This document shows, one piece after another, positions 42,193-48,985 of a stretch of DNA of 64,000 nt. Under the pieces are notes generated by a model. That model was not told the origin of the DNA. It searched no databases and worked only from the letters and a program-made list of their open reading frames with translations. Source of the DNA: an uncultured Candidatus Saccharibacteria bacterium (GTDB lineage Bacteria > Patescibacteriota > Saccharimonadia > CAILAD01 > JADZBC01). Each line of letters starts with the position of its first letter. Position 1 is the stretch's first letter. The stretch covers positions 616 through 64,615 of the forward strand of contig CAYTBW010000002.1 of NCBI GenBank assembly GCA_964436255.1, written 5' to 3'. Both the position numbers and the translations under genes were made by a program.

Positions 42193-42498
42193 TTAGGCCT
42201 TGATATCAGTGATAGTGAGTTCAGCGTACTTTTGGCGATGGCCAGTCTTGGTGCTTTGTCGCTTCTTGGCTTTGTATTTCAAGATAACAACTTTTTTGCC
42301 CTTAACTTGATCTTCGGCAACGGTGGCTTTAACCACGGCGTTTTCTAGAACCGGCTTGCCAACCTGTACGTTATCTCCATCAATAATCATGAGTGGCTTA
42401 AACTCAACAGCCTTCTCGTCGCCAAGAAGTTCGGTCTGGATCTTTTGACCCTTTTCTACGATGTACTGCTTTGAGCCAGCTTCAATTACTGCAATCAT
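42193..42498 (-). CDS. rplU: 50S ribosomal protein L21
   Basis: 'MIAVIEAGSKQYIVEKGQKI...GHRQKYAEL'. Confidence 0.8.
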   Translation of the reverse strand: MIAVIEAGSKQYIVEKGQKIQTELLGDEKAVEFKPLMIIDGDNVQVGKPVLENAVVKATVAEDQVKGKKVVILKYKAKKRQSTKTGHRQKYAELTITDIKA

Positions 42499-42634
42499 AT
42501 GATTCCTCGTTTTTTGTTAGTCAATAAACAATCTTAGCAGATTCGGTAGTGTTTGTAAACGTCTTGGGGCTGATGAAATTGGCTGGCTGTATCTGTTGAT
42601 GCATGCTAGAATAGGTAAGACAAAGGAGGGTGAA

Positions 42635-43396
42635 GTGTCTCATATTATTGCTATAGCCAATCAAAAAGGCGGGGTAGGGAAAACCACGACCAGTATCAAC
42701 CTGGGCGCTTATTTGGCAAAGCAAGGGCAAAAGGTCCTGATAGTTGATCTTGACCCTCAGGGCAATAGCTCGAGCGGGCTGGCGATAGCTAAGAATCAGC
42801 TACCTTCAACCGCGTACAATGTGCTGGTAGAAGACGCACCAGCAGTAAGCGCCATCCAGCCTACTGGTGTACCGAAGCTAGATGTGCTGCCCGCCAACTC
42901 TGTCTTGGCTGCCGCCGAGCTAGAACTGTCGAACATACAACAGCGCGAATACCAATTAAGGAAGGCTCTCGGGAATTTGGAATACGACTATATACTGATT
43001 GACTGCCCGCCATCCCTTGGCTTATTAACTCTAAATGGCCTTGTGGCGGCTACCCACCTACTCATCCCCGTTCAATCCGAGTTCTACGCCCTTGAAGGCC
43101 TTGGGCAACTATTGGCTACCGTCAAGCGTGTTCGACAGGGTCTTAATCCGCAGCTGACCCTACTTGGTGTAGTGATTACTATGCATTCGTCCCGCACCAG
43201 CCTGGCCACCCAGGTACAAAAGGAACTCAAACATCACTTTCCAGATACATTGTTTGATACGATAATTCCGCGTAATATTAGGTTAGCAGAGGCGCCAAGC
43301 CATGGCCGGCCGATTAGTCAGTACGACCGGTTCTCAAAAGGCGCCCAGAGTTACAAAAAGTTAGCCAAGGAGGTAATGCAACGTGTCAGCAAGTAG
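42635..43396 (+). CDS. parA: Chromosome partitioning ATPase ParA/Soj
   Basis: Deviant Walker A 'KGGVGKTT'. GTG start at 42635 with AAAGGAGGG RBS. Confidence 0.85.
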   Translation: MSHIIAIANQKGGVGKTTTSINLGAYLAKQGQKVLIVDLDPQGNSSSGLAIAKNQLPSTAYNVLVEDAPAVSAIQPTGVPKLDVLPANSVLAAAELELSNIQQREYQLRKALGNLEYDYILIDCPPSLGLLTLNGLVAATHLLIPVQSEFYALEGLGQLLATVKRVRQGLNPQLTLLGVVITMHSSRTSLATQVQKELKHHFPDTLFDTIIPRNIRLAEAPSHGRPISQYDRFSKGAQSYKKLAKEVMQRVSK

Positions 43397-44279
43397 TCAA
43401 GGAAGCAGCCGTTTAGGTCGAGGCTTAGATAGTCTGATACCTACGGACATCGATGAGTTTGCAGCACCATCCATGCCGAAGGAGTTGGTCAAGGAAGGCG
43501 CGCGCGTCGAAGACTTAGGGATCAACGACATCGTCCCAAACCCAAACCAGCCCCGCTCGAACTTTTCCGATGAACAGTTGGGAGAGTTGGCCCAGTCGAT
43601 CAAGGAGCACGGGATTGTTCAGCCGTTGGTAGTCGTGCGTGAAGGTGGCACTTACCAGCTCATTGCCGGTGAACGTAGGCTGCGTGCCGCTAAGTTAGTT
43701 GGCCTCAAGACAGTGCCTGCAATTGTGCGAAGCTTTTCGCAGCAGGAGCAGCTAGAAGTCGCTTTGATAGAAAACATACAGCGAAGCGAGCTCAATGCAC
43801 TCGAACTAGCAAGTGCCTACGCTAAGTTGGCAGATCAGTTTAGTATGACGCTCGAGCAGATATCTCAGCGTGTGGGCAAGGCTGTATCCACCGTGGGTAA
43901 CATCATGAGGCTGCTGAATCTACCCCACGAAGCCAAGCAGGCGTTAAACGATGGCGTTATTACCGAAGGGCATGCCAGACAGATCCTTGCTGTAACTGGC
44001 CCAGAAGACCAGTTGCTATTCTTAGATATGATTATTAAGGGTGGACTGAATGTGCGTCAAGCCGAAGAGCTTGCTCGCAACTTTAAGAAAGAAGGCAAGG
44101 AGGCCGTTAAGAAGGTTGTAGAGAAGCAGACATACAACGCTCAACTGACTGCCGACCTTGGTAAGTACTTAGGCACCAAAGTTGATGTTCATAAGACCGC
44201 CAAAGGCGGCAAGCTCGTAATTGAATTCTATTCCGACGAAGAACTTGGCCGTTTGTACCACCAGATTCTCGGCGAGTAG
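43383..44279 (+). CDS. parB: Chromosome partitioning protein ParB/Spo0J
   Basis: 'GERRLRAA' ParB box plus HTH. Confidence 0.85.
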   Translation: MSASSQGSSRLGRGLDSLIPTDIDEFAAPSMPKELVKEGARVEDLGINDIVPNPNQPRSNFSDEQLGELAQSIKEHGIVQPLVVVREGGTYQLIAGERRLRAAKLVGLKTVPAIVRSFSQQEQLEVALIENIQRSELNALELASAYAKLADQFSMTLEQISQRVGKAVSTVGNIMRLLNLPHEAKQALNDGVITEGHARQILAVTGPEDQLLFLDMIIKGGLNVRQAEELARNFKKEGKEAVKKVVEKQTYNAQLTADLGKYLGTKVDVHKTAKGGKLVIEFYSDEELGRLYHQILGE

Positions 44280-44309: not shown

Positions 44310-44338
44310 TTGACATATAGCCACAAGCGGTATACAAT
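44310..44338 (+). promoter_or_regulatory. Strong sigma70 promoter (TTGACA-N17-TACAAT) driving the T-box leader
   Basis: Consensus -35 TTGACA at 44310-44315, 17-nt spacer, TACAAT at 44333-44338. Confidence 0.7.
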
Positions 44339-44345
44339 ATTTTCA

Positions 44346-44640
44346 GTTCTTTGCAATATTTCAAAACCCATATTTGATTCCTGCACATATTTGTCGCAGG
44401 GTTGGGGTCAGATTTTCACTTAAGTGAAGGGTGGTTACTGCGTTAGTGGTAGCCCGGGTTCCTCCGTAATCATAGGATAGCTGTTGTCGTCTACGGTATG
44501 TAGAGTCTGAGTCAGCGAAGAGGTCTTTTTTCGTACAAGAAAGTACAGTCAAGACAAAGCAAGGTGGCACCGCGGTTTCATAGAATACCGCCCTTGTTGC
44601 ATATCTATTTAGGTATGCAATGAGGGCGGGATTTTTGTTT
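44346..44640 (+). promoter_or_regulatory. T-box riboswitch (tRNA-Trp-responsive, transcription-termination type) upstream of the AstE/AspA-family gene and trpS
   Basis: T-box sequence AAGGUGGCACCGCGG at 44561-44575 folds as a canonical antiterminator: AAGG-[UGGCACC bulge]-GCGGU...ACCGC-CCUU, with UGGC matching discriminator G73 of tRNA-Trp. F-box GCGUUA at 44440-44445. Mutually exclusive terminator CCGCCCUUGUUGCAUA...UAUGCAAUGAGGGCGG plus U-run at 44588-44640. Confidence 0.8.
44588..44640 (+). terminator. Intrinsic terminator of the T-box leader
   Basis: Long GC-rich hairpin followed by GAUUUUUGUUU; shares ACCGCCCUU with the antiterminator. Confidence 0.8.
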
Positions 44641-44695
44641 CCCGCAGACCCAATCCATGAAAGGAGAGCCTGATGGACTGGTGAGAAATGGGTAC

Positions 44696-44758
44696 GGCAC
44701 CCTTATGCCGACTAACGGTGCCCCGGGAGTTTACGCTCTCGGGGCACCACCCCCAAAG
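44696..44758 (+). promoter_or_regulatory. Two consecutive stable hairpins immediately upstream of the RBS of the AstE/AspA-family gene
   Basis: GGCACCC..GGUGCC, then a 13-bp stem GGUGCCCCGGGAG-UUUACG-CUCUCGGGGCACC ending 7 nt before RBS AAAGGAAG. No U-tract. Confidence 0.4.
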
Positions 44759-44765
44759 GAAGAAT

Positions 44766-45499: not shown

Positions 45500-46519
45500 A
45501 TGAAAGCTAAAACTATACTTACAGGCGACCGTCCTACGGGCAAACTACACCTTGGTCATTACTTGGGCACGTTAGAGAATCGCGTGAAGCTACAGGATGA
45601 TTACGAATCACTCATCATGCTTGCGGATGTCCAAGCTTTGACTGATAACTTTGATAACCCCAAAAAAGTTCGCGAAAGTGTCTACGAGGTTGCTCTGGAC
45701 AACTTAGCAGTCGGTCTAGACCCGGCAAAGTCCCACCTGTTTATACAGTCTATGGTCCCGGAGATTGCAGAGCTGACGGTATATTTCATGAACTTAGTTA
45801 CGCTCGCGCGACTGAAGCGAAATCCGACAGTTAAGTCCGAGATGGAGCAGAAAGGCTTTGGGAGCAACGTTCCTGTTGGGTTCTTGAATTACCCAGTTTC
45901 TGAAGCTGCAGATATCTTGGCGTTTGGCACAGACCTGGTGCCCGCGGGGGAAGACCAGCAGCCGATGGTTGAGCAGACTCGTGAGATTGTGCGAAAGTTC
46001 AATCGTACATATGGCGTGACGTTTAAGGTTCCTGAGATACTTGTAGGCAGAATAGCGCGTCTTGTCGGTACAGATGGTAGCGCGAAGATGAGTAAAAGCC
46101 TAGGGAACGTGATCTATCTATCTGACGATGCGGCCGCAGTAGAGAAGAAGGTTATGGGTATGTACACAGATCCAAATCGCCTAAAAGCGGACGATGCAGG
46201 GAGTATACAGAACAACCCCGTGTTTATATATCTTGATGCCTTTGCGACCACAAACCATCTCGATACACTCGGGAAACTCAAGGAGCGATATATCCGGGGC
46301 GAAGTGGGGGACGTTGAGGTGAAGCGCTACCTTGCACTCGTACTTAATGAATTCCTTGACCCTATAAGAGAGAGGAGAGCATTCTATGAAGCCCGGCCAG
46401 AATTGGTCCAACAGATCCTTAAGGATGGCACCAAGGCAGCTAGGGAGTTAGCAGCTGAGACATTGGTTAAGGTGAAAAGTGCAATGCAACTCGATTACGA
46501 TAAAGACGGAATTATGTGA
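45500..46519 (+). CDS. trpS: Tryptophanyl-tRNA synthetase
   Basis: 'TGDRPTGKLHLGHYLG' HIGH region and 'KMSKSLGN'. Start ATG 45500 with AAGGAG RBS, 11 nt after the upstream gene's stop. Confidence 0.9.
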   Translation: MKAKTILTGDRPTGKLHLGHYLGTLENRVKLQDDYESLIMLADVQALTDNFDNPKKVRESVYEVALDNLAVGLDPAKSHLFIQSMVPEIAELTVYFMNLVTLARLKRNPTVKSEMEQKGFGSNVPVGFLNYPVSEAADILAFGTDLVPAGEDQQPMVEQTREIVRKFNRTYGVTFKVPEILVGRIARLVGTDGSAKMSKSLGNVIYLSDDAAAVEKKVMGMYTDPNRLKADDAGSIQNNPVFIYLDAFATTNHLDTLGKLKERYIRGEVGDVEVKRYLALVLNEFLDPIRERRAFYEARPELVQQILKDGTKAARELAAETLVKVKSAMQLDYDKDGIM

Positions 46520-46579: not shown

Positions 46580-47428
46580 CTAGTACGTAGGGTGCTTAAG
46601 CGGGCCGAGCTCGTTAATAGGCAAGAGTCGGGCTGTGGCGACCCCTACGATATCAAACCTAGGTAGCTGCCCCCACTCCCGTGAATCAAAGCTGCCGTTT
46701 GGCGCACGGTTGTCACCGACTACAAAATATTTCCCTTCTTCTACTACTTCGTCAATTTCGCCCTGGGTGGTAAGTGACTGGTCGATGTAGGGCTCGTTGA
46801 GCTCTAGGCCGTCTGGGTTGGCATCGTTATATATCGTAAACTTCCCGTTCTTCAGGACAACACGTTCACCAGGTAGCCCAATCAGGCGCTTAATGAAGAA
46901 AGTACCAGGACTATTTGGGTAGCGGAATACCAGTACGTCTCCTCGTTTCAGGTCTAGGCTCGTGTCCATGCCTAGGCCGGCTTTGATTGTGGTAAGCGTA
47001 AAACCAACCTTGTCGATAATAAGGTAGTCGCCGTCTTGGAAGCCTGGGTTCATACTGCTGCCGGAAACATAGAAGGCCTGGAAGACGAAACTGTGCAAGA
47101 ATAAAACTATAAGTCCCGGCAGAACGATCCAGCTGAATATCGTTTTTAGGACTCCAAGTATTGCGCTCGGCGCTCGTTCTTCCTCGAACTCCTCTTCGCT
47201 CGCGTCGGCCTGGTCTGCTTCTTGCTCTGCAGCTGGCTTCAGGGGTGGAGCGAGCTTAGGGTGAGTTTGTGGCTTGTCTGCCGGCGCCGCTTGAGCTGTC
47301 GCAGGAGCATGAGGGCTAGCAGGCGGCACAGCGTGGTCGTGCCGGGGCTGAGGTGGCGTGGTTCCTGGGTGAAGGCTAGGGGCTACTGGCTCAGTGCTGT
47401 TGTGCGGGTCTTGTTGCATGCTCATCAT
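46580..47428 (-). CDS. lepB: Signal peptidase I with a long Pro/Ala-rich N-terminal cytoplasmic extension
   Basis: 'SGSSMNP' catalytic Ser box, 'KRLIGLPGE', 'GDNR' box. ~110-aa low-complexity N-terminus before the TM. Confidence 0.8.
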   Translation of the reverse strand: MMSMQQDPHNSTEPVAPSLHPGTTPPQPRHDHAVPPASPHAPATAQAAPADKPQTHPKLAPPLKPAAEQEADQADASEEEFEEERAPSAILGVLKTIFSWIVLPGLIVLFLHSFVFQAFYVSGSSMNPGFQDGDYLIIDKVGFTLTTIKAGLGMDTSLDLKRGDVLVFRYPNSPGTFFIKRLIGLPGERVVLKNGKFTIYNDANPDGLELNEPYIDQSLTTQGEIDEVVEEGKYFVVGDNRAPNGSFDSREWGQLPRFDIVGVATARLLPINELGPLKHPTY

Positions 47429-47503: not shown

Positions 47504-48985
47504 ATGGGCCTGAAGAAAACTACAAAGGGGGTGAGTGTTTCGTCGAGTCGCAACAGTGGAGGTGGCGACCCGGCTTTTATTTACGATCCAAAGAGTCGTA
47601 AAGTGAAGGGTAAACATAGGTTCAGGAGTGCAATAATCGTTCTTGCCCTCGTACTACTCGCAGGAGGCAGCGCGTTTGCTGCTAAGAGTTACCTTTCCTT
47701 GGGTAAGGTCATCCAGCGGAATACTGGGGTTAGTGCCGCTGGGCTGAAGGGCAAACTACAGTTATCTCAGCTTAAAGGCGAGGGCGAAGGGCGCATTAAT
47801 ATTCTACTGTTGGGGGTTGGGGATAGTACGCACTCGGGCGCAAAGCTGAGCGACACTATGATGGTTTTGAGCATTGACCCCCAGACGAACGATGTAGCCA
47901 TGCTTGGCATCCCAAGGGACTTATGGGTAAATGTGCCAGGATTTGGTTATAGCAAGATTAATGCAGCGCATGCCTATGGAGAGCAGCTTAAGAAGGACGG
48001 CGGACCAGATATGGCAAAGAAGGTAGTTAGTTCTGCACTTGGTGTACCGATCCACTATTTTTTTAGAACGGACTTCACGGCCTTTAAGCAGGCGGTTGAT
48101 TCTGTAGGTGGCGTTACAATTGACGTCAAGCAGGCACTATACGACGTCGAGTACCCTTGCGAAAAGAACCCTAATTTGTCATGTGGTTTTAAGCTGAAGG
48201 CTGGCGTACAGAAAATGGATGGCGCAACTGCTCTTAAGTACGTCAGGTGCCGTAAGGGAAACTGTGGCGATGATTTTGGTCGCGCACAGCGGCAACAGCA
48301 GGTTCTGGTTGCGCTTAAGGCCAAGGCTCTGAGCGCAAAGACTCTCCTGGATCCGGCCAAGCTCTCTGGCTTGATTGATACCGTAGGGAATAACATCCGC
48401 CTCGACTTACAGATAGGGGAAATCCAGCGCCTTATTGATATTAGCAAGAAAGTAGATAGCACAAAGATGGTTAATGCCGTCCTGGATAATGATGAGGCTA
48501 AGGGTACAAACTTGGTTCGCACTACAAATATTGGCGGGGCTAGTGTGGTTGTGCCTGCTGCTGGAATAGGCAATTATGCTCAGATTCAGAAGTTCGTTAA
48601 ATCCATATTTGTGGATGGGTATATCAAGCAAGAGAACGCACCAATCGAGGTACAGAACGGCACGACTCGACCAGGCCTGGCTCTGAGCGCAACAAACCTG
48701 CTTAAGGGATACAGCTATAACGTTATAAGTACTGTCTCTGCGGATCGCACTACGTATGCCAAGACACAGATCGTCGATTATAGTAATGGCAAGAATCCCT
48801 ACACTTTGCGATACTTAGAAAAGCGTTTTGGGGTAAAAGCAACGAAAGCTCAGAGCGTAGCGCCAAAGTCTATTCCACAAGCTTCTCCCGGCGCATCTCA
48901 GCCAAATATTACGGGCCAGGTATCGACGCAACCACAGATTACCATTACAATTGGAGCTGACTACAAGCCAACCAATTTATACTAA
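47504..48985 (+). CDS. LytR-CpsA-Psr (LCP) family cell-envelope phosphotransferase with a C-terminal LytR_C-like domain
   Basis: N-terminal TM. 'INILLLGVGDS...SDTMMVLSIDP...GIPRDLWVNVPG' LCP core. Confidence 0.8.
   Translation: MGLKKTTKGVSVSSSRNSGGGDPAFIYDPKSRKVKGKHRFRSAIIVLALVLLAGGSAFAAKSYLSLGKVIQRNTGVSAAGLKGKLQLSQLKGEGEGRINILLLGVGDSTHSGAKLSDTMMVLSIDPQTNDVAMLGIPRDLWVNVPGFGYSKINAAHAYGEQLKKDGGPDMAKKVVSSALGVPIHYFFRTDFTAFKQAVDSVGGVTIDVKQALYDVEYPCEKNPNLSCGFKLKAGVQKMDGATALKYVRCRKGNCGDDFGRAQRQQQVLVALKAKALSAKTLLDPAKLSGLIDTVGNNIRLDLQIGEIQRLIDISKKVDSTKMVNAVLDNDEAKGTNLVRTTNIGGASVVVPAAGIGNYAQIQKFVKSIFVDGYIKQENAPIEVQNGTTRPGLALSATNLLKGYSYNVISTVSADRTTYAKTQIVDYSNGKNPYTLRYLEKRFGVKATKAQSVAPKSIPQASPGASQPNITGQVSTQPQITITIGADYKPTNLY

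Follow-up and report, generated by a model that had tools for sequence, protein, structure and literature searches.

Which signals control an operon that begins with a hydrolase gene of the AstE/AspA family and continues with trpS? The question is raised by region 44310-44765 (+ strand) of a 64,000-nt stretch of Saccharibacteria DNA (the window), located directly upstream of such an operon. A sequence-only reading had placed in this region a sigma70 promoter, a canonical T-box riboswitch of the tRNA-Trp type with mutually exclusive antiterminator and terminator, and a second structured element before the ribosome binding site (RBS) of the first gene. In the analysis described here the tRNA-Trp T-box, with its exclusive structures ahead of the astE-like gene and then trpS, was borne out. 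The region is very probably the approximately 420-nt 5' leader of the operon, and a compact Trp T-box is the best overall explanation of it. That the leader is a transcription-terminating tRNA-Trp T-box of a compact kind is well supported. It is not, however, a canonical T-box: Stem I is truncated, the elbow platform is missing and the Rfam score is below threshold.

Structure of the leader

The helix model was derived from an alignment (alignment A1) of the window with ten homologous Saccharibacteria leaders (L007, L081, L082, L084, L086, L088, L089, L090, L091 and L212), which had been recovered by protein-guided searches. Together these 11 family leaders represent seven lineages. Counted over all helices, 92-94% of the pair cells were paired, versus 38-46% when the partners were slid, and compensatory changes were found at 25-30 pairs, a number reached in 0 of 500 shuffles. 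Backed in this way by covariation, the IIA/B pseudoknot included, the predicted leader structure is real and of a compact kind. Coordinates of the features are collected in Table 1.

The T-box motif (AAGGUGGCACCGCGG, 44561-75) is part of an antiterminator in which all elements of the earlier fold, i.e. helices A1 and A2 and the bulge between them, are present. The exact string GGUGGNACCNCG occurs once in the window, within the leader. The terminator hairpin includes nucleotides from the antiterminator's 3' half, and the two structures are mutually exclusive. The terminator, which had also been predicted to be strong, has an energy of -32.4 kcal/mol versus -10.6 kcal/mol for the antiterminator, an asymmetry that is usual for T-boxes. 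In the 11 leaders it is 97% paired, with compensatory changes at 7 of its 19 pairs. At the other end of the leader the near-consensus promoter was found where it had been reported; TTGACA-N17-TAnAAT is present at the same position in the L007, L081, L082, L084 and L091 leaders, and the transcript is predicted to start near 44345.

All Stem I cells (100%) are paired in the 11 sequences, and 7 of the 17 pairs show compensatory changes. The upper helix has 5-6 bp and ends in a loop of 6-21 nt whose sequence is not conserved and in which no conserved distal motif was seen. Kink-turn (K-turn) flanks of the type UGA...UGAGG were seen in related metagenomic leaders; in the 11-member family the covarying hairpin 44415-28, which separates the lower helix from the base helix, takes the place of the 3' flank.

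Stem II is 100% paired, with covariation at four of its six pairs. In the Rfam alignment the loop, with the consensus UGCRYNAGUG, falls on the AGUA region of Stem II; its conserved AGUG at most suggests an S-turn in Stem II. All four pairs of the IIB pseudoknot show compensatory changes (UCCU/AGGA, GCAC/GUGC, GUCU/AGAC and GCCU/AGGC), again with 100% pairing. The F-box equivalent, at the position given by the Rfam model, is CCGUAA (44464-69) inside the IIA/B pseudoknot. The string GCGUUA, which the sequence-only reading had taken for the F-box, does exist (44440-45) but is located in the Stem II loop. The linker that follows has nearly invariant flanks, and its inner hairpin covaries at 5/5 pairs. 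The Stem III helix is variable and partly aligned, with 69-88% pairing, and its flanks fit a published motif, RRRxG-Stem III-AA (PMC7583486).

Table 1. Features of the leader, the operon and the flanking genes (window coordinates)
Feature	Position	Strand	Basis or remark
Sigma-70-type promoter, TTGACA-N17-TACAAT	44310-44338	+	11/12 consensus positions; predicted
Truncated Stem I domain	44366-44432	+	Pairing in 11 sequences
Stem I base helix, ACCC/GGGU	44366-69 / 44429-32	+	Alignment model
Lower Stem I helix	44372-78 / 44407-13	+	Alignment model
Invariant upper Stem I helix with variable loop	44379-44401	+	Alignment model
Specifier bulge UUGGG (3' side, invariant)	44402-06	+	UGG codon 44403-05, then purine G
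Small hairpin at K-turn position	44415-28	+	Covarying
Stem II, 6-bp hairpin GGUUAC/GUAGCC with conserved 10-nt loop UGCGUUAGUG	44433-44454	+	Alignment
Stem IIA (CGG/CCG) and IIB pseudoknot, UCCU 44460-63 with AGGA 44474-77	44455-44477	+	Covariation
Conserved linker: helix GCUG/CAGC around variable hairpin 44490-44504	44480-44516	+	Insertion relative to Rfam model
Stem III (44523-55), flanked by purines (5' side AAGAG, 3' side AA)	44518-44557	+	Motif match
T-box sequence and antiterminator	44560-44596	+	Fold, alignment
A1, CAAGG/CCUUG	44560-64 / 44592-96	+	Invariant in 11 sequences
Antiterminator bulge UGGCACC, 7 nt	44565-71	+	Sequence
A2, GCGGU/ACCGC	44572-76 / 44587-91	+	80% paired in 11 leaders
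Intrinsic terminator: 19-bp hairpin 44588-44629, then U-run GAUUUUUGUU	44588-44639	+	Terminator scan
Mini-open reading frame (mini-ORF) module	44654-44684	+	Conserved in 11/11 leaders
Weak hairpin UCCAU 44654-58 / AUGGA 44673-77 around the mini-ORF Shine-Dalgarno sequence (SD)	44654-44677	+
Mini-ORF SD, AAAGGAG	44660-66	+	Sequence
Mini-ORF (Met-Asp-Trp-stop): AUG 44673-75, GAC 44676-78, UGG 44679-81, UGA 44682-84	44673-84	+
Hairpin A, CGGCA-CCCUUA-UGCCG	44695-44710	+	54/55 cells canonical
Hairpin B, GC-rich, 14 bp, loop UUAC	44717-44748	+	139/139 cells canonical, 11 sequences
C/A-rich tail ACCCCCAAA and astE-like SD AAAGGAAG (44755-62)	44749-44765	+
AstE/AspA-family zinc hydrolase-like gene, 240 aa	44766-45488	+	PF24827 AstE_AspA_cat, 63.6 bits (cutoff 25)
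trpS (tryptophan--tRNA ligase)	45500-46519	+	TIGR00233, 273 bits (cutoff 176.75)
Ribosomal protein L21-like	42193-42498	-	Translation read by eye only
parA	42596-43396		Upstream of promoter
parB	43383-44279		Directly upstream of promoter
Signal-peptidase-like ORF	46580-47428	-	Translation read by eye only
LCP/LytR-like ORF	47504-48985		Downstream of trpS; translation read by eye only

How far this leader departs from known T-boxes is seen in the Rfam scans. In a permissive scan of the whole 64-kb window RF00230 was the sole family with E<=0.05 (31.9 bits, E=0.0026), and on the local 651 nt its E value was 2.6e-5. The discriminator half of the leader fits the model well in the Rfam alignment. 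Several points, however, weigh against a T-box. The score of 31.9 bits is far under the gathering score of 93; the default scan of the 64-kb window returned no match, and no family reached its gathering score anywhere. In the Rfam alignment 87 Stem I model positions are reduced to 6 nt, and in the 11-member family Stem I has neither a distal elbow platform nor a recognizable K-turn. The terminal A2 pair (44572/44591; columns 242/270 of alignment A1), at which a G.U wobble has been described as a steric sensor of the aminoacyl group (PMC7583486), is G-C here and in 9/11 leaders, with A-U and G.U occurring once each. Lastly, the covariation set comprises only seven independent lineages. The word canonical must be dropped, although RF00230 is indeed the family that the scan points to. 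The low score is explained by the collapse of Stem I, the shortened Stem II and the approximately 60 extra nt ahead of Stem III. Permissive matches to other families on 44584-44752 (mir-8186, sar, mir-559 and Scr6925) were rejected as generic hairpin look-alikes far under threshold.

The specifier and the tRNA discriminator

A UGG triplet, the specifier expected for tRNA-Trp in the sequence-only reading, is located at 44403-05 in the conserved UUGGG bulge of Stem I, and UGG followed by G is invariant in the 11-member family. For a broader set of leaders, a class-generic pattern composed of the Stem II loop, IIA and the F-box was run on metagenomes. It gave 120 matching stretches, 74 of which had a T-box motif within approximately 260 nt; deduplication left 70 Trp T-box-type leaders outside the 11-member family. 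UGGG was found at the bulge position in 69 of these 70 related leaders, mostly as RUUGGG. The first genes behind them include those for TrpA, TrpB-type PALP enzymes, a TrpD-type phosphoribosyltransferase and TrpE (recognized by its Chorismate_bind and Anth_synt_I_N domains) as well as trpS. At the T-box base that pairs with the discriminator (N), 39 of the 70 leaders have C and 31 have U; A and G do not occur. ARAGORN detected no tRNA genes in the 64-kb window. Four tRNA-Trp(CCA) genes were found inside related T-box loci; G73 is present in 4/4, and the N of the accompanying T-box is C in three cases and U (wobble) in one.

Taking together the conservation of UGGG, the trp first genes, the restriction of N to C or U and the G73 of the tRNAs, the predicted Trp specifier is UGG 44403-05, and the UGGC of the antiterminator bulge fits G73 of tRNA-Trp, as had been claimed. 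Two other UGG triplets, 44432-34 (base helix/Stem II) and 44446-48 (Stem II loop), were rejected as specifiers by their location. Some family leaders precede a gene for a ProRS-like synthetase and have the same UUGGGG bulge; by this criterion they are predicted to be Trp T-boxes, too. A non-Trp specifier (UUG, GUU or GGG) was considered for these leaders and rejected in view of the invariant bulge, the trp-gene class and the N that is only C or U.

A mini-ORF and two hairpins between the terminator and the first gene

The second structured element of the sequence-only reading consists of hairpins A and B. That reading had missed the mini-ORF (Met-Asp-Trp-stop) that precedes them with an SD of its own. 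This part of the leader was aligned by manual block alignment; MAFFT and RNAalifold misalign hairpin A and are unreliable for it.

In 11/11 family leaders an SD (GAAAGGAG or GGAAAGG) is located 5-7 nt ahead of an AUG or GUG, and the in-frame ORF that follows has 3-8 codons and the end (Asp/Glu)-Trp-stop (UGA or UAA). The peptide is MDW in the window and MSDW (with a UAA stop), MSGDW, MRFGDEW or MRFGGDEW elsewhere. The lengths of 3, 4, 5, 7 or 8 codons differ by whole codons, and the stop has changed from UGA to UAA in one lineage. A Trp-ending mini-ORF was sought in approximately 52 other Trp T-box leaders and was found in none. On these comparisons, the mini-ORF/hairpin element is specific to the lineage of the window.

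Both hairpins vary in sequence between leaders. The innermost pair of hairpin A is A-U, G-C, C-G or U-A, and the arms of hairpin B have only 3-7 of 11-14 nt in common between most lineages. ACCC or CACCA is present in the C/A-rich tail of every lineage. In single-sequence folds hairpins A and B were closed into a three-way junction in all lineages. The tail may pair with GGGU 44690-93 or UGGUG 44679-83 and close the junction in this way; the pairing partners are invariant. Conservation of the junction strands is partial (ACGGC, GCCGA, ACNUAA and CACCA). The mini-ORF stop (44682-84) and the SD of the astE-like gene (44755-62) are 70 nt apart, a stretch that includes hairpins A and B.

Some lineages have additional elements in this part of the leader. 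In the ProRS-linked clade (L084, L089, L090 and L212) an extra covarying hairpin (GGGUGUCG...CGACACCC or GAGUGUCG...CGACACUC) is located ahead of the mini-ORF SD, approximately 30-60 nt after the T-box terminator, and an upstream UCACCA is complementary to the UGGUGA at the end of the mini-ORF. In L086 (2470-2560) and L088 (2450-2545) an insertion of approximately 50 nt with two small hairpins separates hairpin A from hairpin B.

The genes behind the leader

The order that had been claimed, an AstE/AspA-family gene with trpS starting 11 nt after its stop, was confirmed by the profile matches listed in Table 1. Between the stop codon TAA (45486-88) and the ATG of trpS there are 11 nt, in which AAGGAG is found. 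The encoded TrpRS is 72-73% identical to TrpRS of Candidatus Saccharibacteria metagenome-assembled genomes (MAGs). The start of the astE-like gene is ATG 44766, and MKV(I/L)QNN is the conserved N-terminus of the protein. A 266-aa ORF from the in-frame ATG 44688, in which hairpins A and B would be coding, was rejected, since in L007 and other homologs the extension is broken or lies in another frame.

The AstE-like protein contains H21-x-x-E24, DLNRxFPG, D97-x-H99 and the catalytic Glu E151, which are invariant in 13 homologs. Its scores against the NCBIfam equivalog cutoffs were 61.2/180 bits for aspartoacylase, 18.7/170 bits for AstE and 27.5/402.7 bits for DoeB, and the best PDB match (E=1.7e-6) covers the N-terminal 100 residues. 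Aspartoacylase, succinylglutamate desuccinylase and the DoeB N-acetyl-diaminobutyrate (N-acetyl-DABA) deacetylase (PDB 3cdx, 6twl) share with it PF24827, HxxE...H, DLNRxFPG and the catalytic Glu, whereas the window protein has only 240 aa and is far below the equivalog cutoffs. The predicted zinc deacylase-like enzyme is intact, and its family is repeatedly tied to tryptophan control. It is a reasonable inference that the protein is a candidate deacylase that would release or recycle tryptophan from an acylated or conjugated form.

The linkage of astE-like and trpS, which the sequence-only reading had proposed to follow in related genomes, was found in L007, L081 and L082/83 in addition to the window. 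Both the T-box and the astE-like gene are lacking at the five closest trpS loci, and other relatives have a ProRS-like gene or nothing in the place of trpS. The order in L091 is leader-trpS-astE-like-ProRS-like synthetase gene; in L084/85, L089, L090 and L212 it is leader-astE-like-ProRS-like gene, and in L086-88 the leader is followed by astE-like alone. The ProRS-like protein is a class-II synthetase with tRNA-synt_2b and HGTP_anticodon domains and, in some cases, a weak ProRS-C_1 match. From these gene orders, the conserved unit is the leader plus astE-like, not astE-like plus trpS.

AstE-family genes are found behind Trp T-boxes also in L044, L095, L105, L158, L163 and L211. In L044 (1362-3400, minus strand; a Saccharibacteria MAG) the Trp T-box is followed by genes for a 260-aa amidoligase/GCS2-like and a 252-aa AstE-like protein and by tRNA-Trp(CCA, G73). 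The unit is on one strand, convergent with trpS, and the tRNA-Trp gene may thus sit within a unit regulated by tRNA-Trp. An outright assignment of the 260-aa protein encoded in L044 and L098 to GCS2 was rejected, the match being sub-threshold (18.3 bits versus the cutoff of 21). A family of 240-270 aa with the pattern GVERE...HVHVG...EFR is encoded by the first gene behind the Trp T-boxes of L098, L105, L107, L112, L116 and L196. It has no significant Pfam match, the best being GCS2 (E=0.0016) and Amidoligase_2 (E=0.004). In L105 an AstE-like gene follows the gene of this family.

AstE-like homologs with 38-42% identity were also found at loci without a T-box (L213 1412-3226, L214 1700-3226 and L215 1482-3226). 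There they are located downstream of a small gene of the Trp_repressor family (PF01371); at two of the three loci (L213 and L215) a gene for a GNAT acetyltransferase also adjoins. A GC-rich hairpin is found just ahead of each of these three astE-like ATGs.

Other first genes behind Trp T-boxes code for a Glu/Leu/Phe/Val-dehydrogenase-family protein (L120 and L187) and for two families without Pfam match (L127/L147 and L185). A partial match to the T-box discriminator part was found downstream of trpS in another Saccharibacteria MAG (L049 5443-5501; 31 bits, E=0.004). The genes that flank the operon in the window (segment 41612-48985) are given at the end of Table 1.

A possible mechanism and its alternatives

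In the mechanism that we envisage, the first tier is the T-box. The CCA anticodon of uncharged tRNA-Trp would pair with the UGG specifier, displayed in the 5-nt bulge of the short Stem I, and the pairing would be stabilized by Stem II and the IIA/B pseudoknot. This stabilizing role is suggested by the lack of an elbow-binding platform. The free 3' GCCA end of the tRNA would pair with UGGC 44565-68, hold the weak antiterminator and block the terminator (44588-44639). Charged tRNA would be unable to pair with UGGC, and transcription would stop.

The second tier would operate on read-through transcripts, on which a ribosome would start at the mini-ORF (44673-84). If Trp-tRNA were scarce, the ribosome would stall with the UGG codon in its A site, and the stall might raise the output of the operon either through an open junction around hairpins A and B or through protection of the mRNA. 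In this way the charging of tRNA-Trp would be read a second time, at the level of translation, as it is in the leader of Bacillus subtilis rtpA. There, the leader peptide RtpLP, which contains three Trp codons, comes after a Trp T-box, and its complete translation blocks translation of rtpA (PMC2311275). The tandem plan is the same in the two leaders, i.e. a Trp T-box and, between its terminator and the first gene, a short Trp-codon ORF; the leaders are not homologous in sequence. RtpLP reportedly has 10 codons and a stop that adjoins the rtpA SD, so that the terminating ribosome blocks this SD. In the window, in contrast, a single Trp is the last of 3-8 codons, and with two stable hairpins between the mini-ORF stop and the main ATG a block of the main SD by a terminating ribosome, as in rtpA, is not expected.

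That the mini-ORF is translated and senses Trp is quite possible, if somewhat short of probable. The joint scheme, in which Saccharibacteria and further candidate-phyla bacteria would use a minimal terminating Trp T-box, to which a single lineage would have added the MDW minigene and hairpin junction as another sensor, with both together controlling a hitherto unrecognized Trp-salvage AstE/AspA-like enzyme (which has an amidoligase-like partner at other loci) and TrpRS, is rather unlikely as a whole. Four observations concerning the second tier weigh against it. The mini-ORF stop is 81 nt away from the main ATG. A simulated stalled ribosome leaves the accessibility of the astE-like RBS much the same (0.67 versus 0.72 in the window), and partition function calculations gave a similar result for all 11 leaders; a model in which the mini-ORF would act by SD sequestration was rejected on this ground. 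Hairpin B is followed by ACCACCCCCAAAGG, which has no U-run, and a conserved alternative pairing was not found. Finally, the AUG/GUG variation of the start codon can also be explained by the small covarying hairpin UCCAU/AUGGA, UCCAC/GUGGA or CUCAC/GUGAG.

In part, the same observations favor an explanation in which the T-box functions as described and the downstream module acts as RNA only, as a 5' stabilizer or processing barrier or as a standby or protein-binding site, with the mini-ORF as a by-product. In favor of this explanation, which we consider possible but doubtful, hairpins A and B are the best-supported parts of the module, and the A/G change in the start codon covaries with an upstream U/C in the small hairpin. 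It is also consistent with the absence of a predicted effect of stalling on RBS accessibility, with the complementarity of UGGUG to the conserved CACCA tail, and with the GC-rich hairpins directly before astE-like in L213-215, where there is neither a T-box nor a mini-ORF. The coding features weigh against it, however. The SD is correctly spaced from the start codon in 11/11 leaders, and the five ORF lengths are all in frame with UGG-stop, for which the chance is approximately (1/3)^4 given a start fixed by the SD. The stop has been kept across the UGA to UAA change, and every mini-ORF closes with a Trp codon, the amino acid of the very tRNA that the leader senses.

The three-way junction of the single-sequence folds, composed of the closing helix and hairpins A and B, with its partly conserved strands, could also be taken for a second, tandem riboswitch sensing tryptophan or a related metabolite. 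This is improbable: the module matches no Rfam family beyond hairpin look-alikes (sar with 25 bits, and miRNA precursors), the closing helix is placed inconsistently, two lineages tolerate, between hairpins A and B, the 50-nt insertion and the additional hairpins that it brings, and there is no visible expression platform, i.e. neither a terminator nor SD sequestration.

A Trp-codon leader peptide followed by stable hairpins is also what would be expected of trpL-like, ribosome-mediated attenuation, with the mini-ORF governing hairpin B as a second terminator. Since hairpin B lacks a U-run, whereas the T-box terminator of the same leader has one, and no antiterminator pairing is conserved (candidates from the window and L089 fail in L084), classical attenuation is very unlikely; moreover, the mini-ORF has a single Trp codon, not tandem ones. 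Least credible of all is that the T-box is a decayed relic and the operon constitutive, as the sub-threshold Rfam score and the T-box-less closest trpS relatives might suggest, because all helices have been preserved through compensatory substitutions in leaders whose associated proteins share 45-60% identity, and specifier, bulge and terminator are invariant or maintained.

Comparison with known leaders

With class I T-boxes (RF00230; the B. subtilis tyrS, trpS and glyQS leaders) the window leader shares a specifier that matches the regulated aminoacyl-tRNA synthetase, the UGGN bulge for the NCCA end of the tRNA, the competition of antiterminator and intrinsic terminator, the IIA/B pseudoknot with an F-box-like CCGUAA, and Stem III with its purine flanks. 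Class I Stem I has an AG bulge and a distal-loop platform, whereas the window leader lacks both and has its specifier in a 5-nt bulge. A small hairpin occupies the place of the K-turn, and a short hairpin with a conserved loop that of the long Stem II with its internal S-turn. The conserved insertion of approximately 60 nt before Stem III and the terminal A2 pair, G-C and not G.U, are further differences.

A short Stem I without the elbow motif, combined with retained Stem II and IIA/B, is likewise found in the actinobacterial ileS T-boxes (class II; Mycobacterium tuberculosis and Nocardia farcinica). In that class the Stem II and IIA/B domain is essential for tRNA binding (PMC7583486), and by analogy the Stem I of the window probably depends on its Stem II domain. 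In contrast to the class II ileS leaders, which respond to Ile, act by SD sequestration and occur in Actinobacteria, the window leader is of the Trp type and comes from Saccharibacteria. The helix that competes in it is that of a U-run terminator, and the first SD is 24 nt further downstream. According to TBDB, transcriptional T-boxes normally have a longer Stem I (PMC7778990).

The idea of a short upstream ORF that reports the amino-acid supply is shared with Escherichia coli trpL and tnaC and with B. subtilis yfmH (PMC7491331). Unlike in these systems, in the window leader there is no terminator after the hairpins that follow the mini-ORF, and there are no conserved alternative hairpins. A peptide of three codons is also too short for a tunnel-mediated arrest of the TnaC type.

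Implications

In our literature search no paper was found that links T-boxes to Saccharibacteria or Patescibacteria, nor anything relevant on AstE or aspartoacylase genes in T-box regulons. T-boxes are usually sorted into those with a long Stem I and a terminator and those with a short Stem I and translational control, the latter in Actinobacteria. In the leader of the window and its approximately 70 metagenomic relatives a minimal Stem I is joined with a terminator. Because their scores are far below the Rfam threshold, compact Trp T-boxes of this kind are missed by standard annotation.

If the mini-ORF is translated and regulatory, the leader would be an independent second case of tandem tRNA-Trp sensing of the rtpA type, with an unusually small leader peptide. 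Saccharibacteria live as episymbionts with reduced genomes and are believed to draw most of their amino acids from the host; genes under tRNA-Trp control therefore point to how tryptophan is obtained. The recurring AstE/AspA-like hydrolase, which sometimes has an amidoligase-like, tRNA-Trp or TrpR-family neighbor, is a candidate for a Trp-related reaction in these bacteria.

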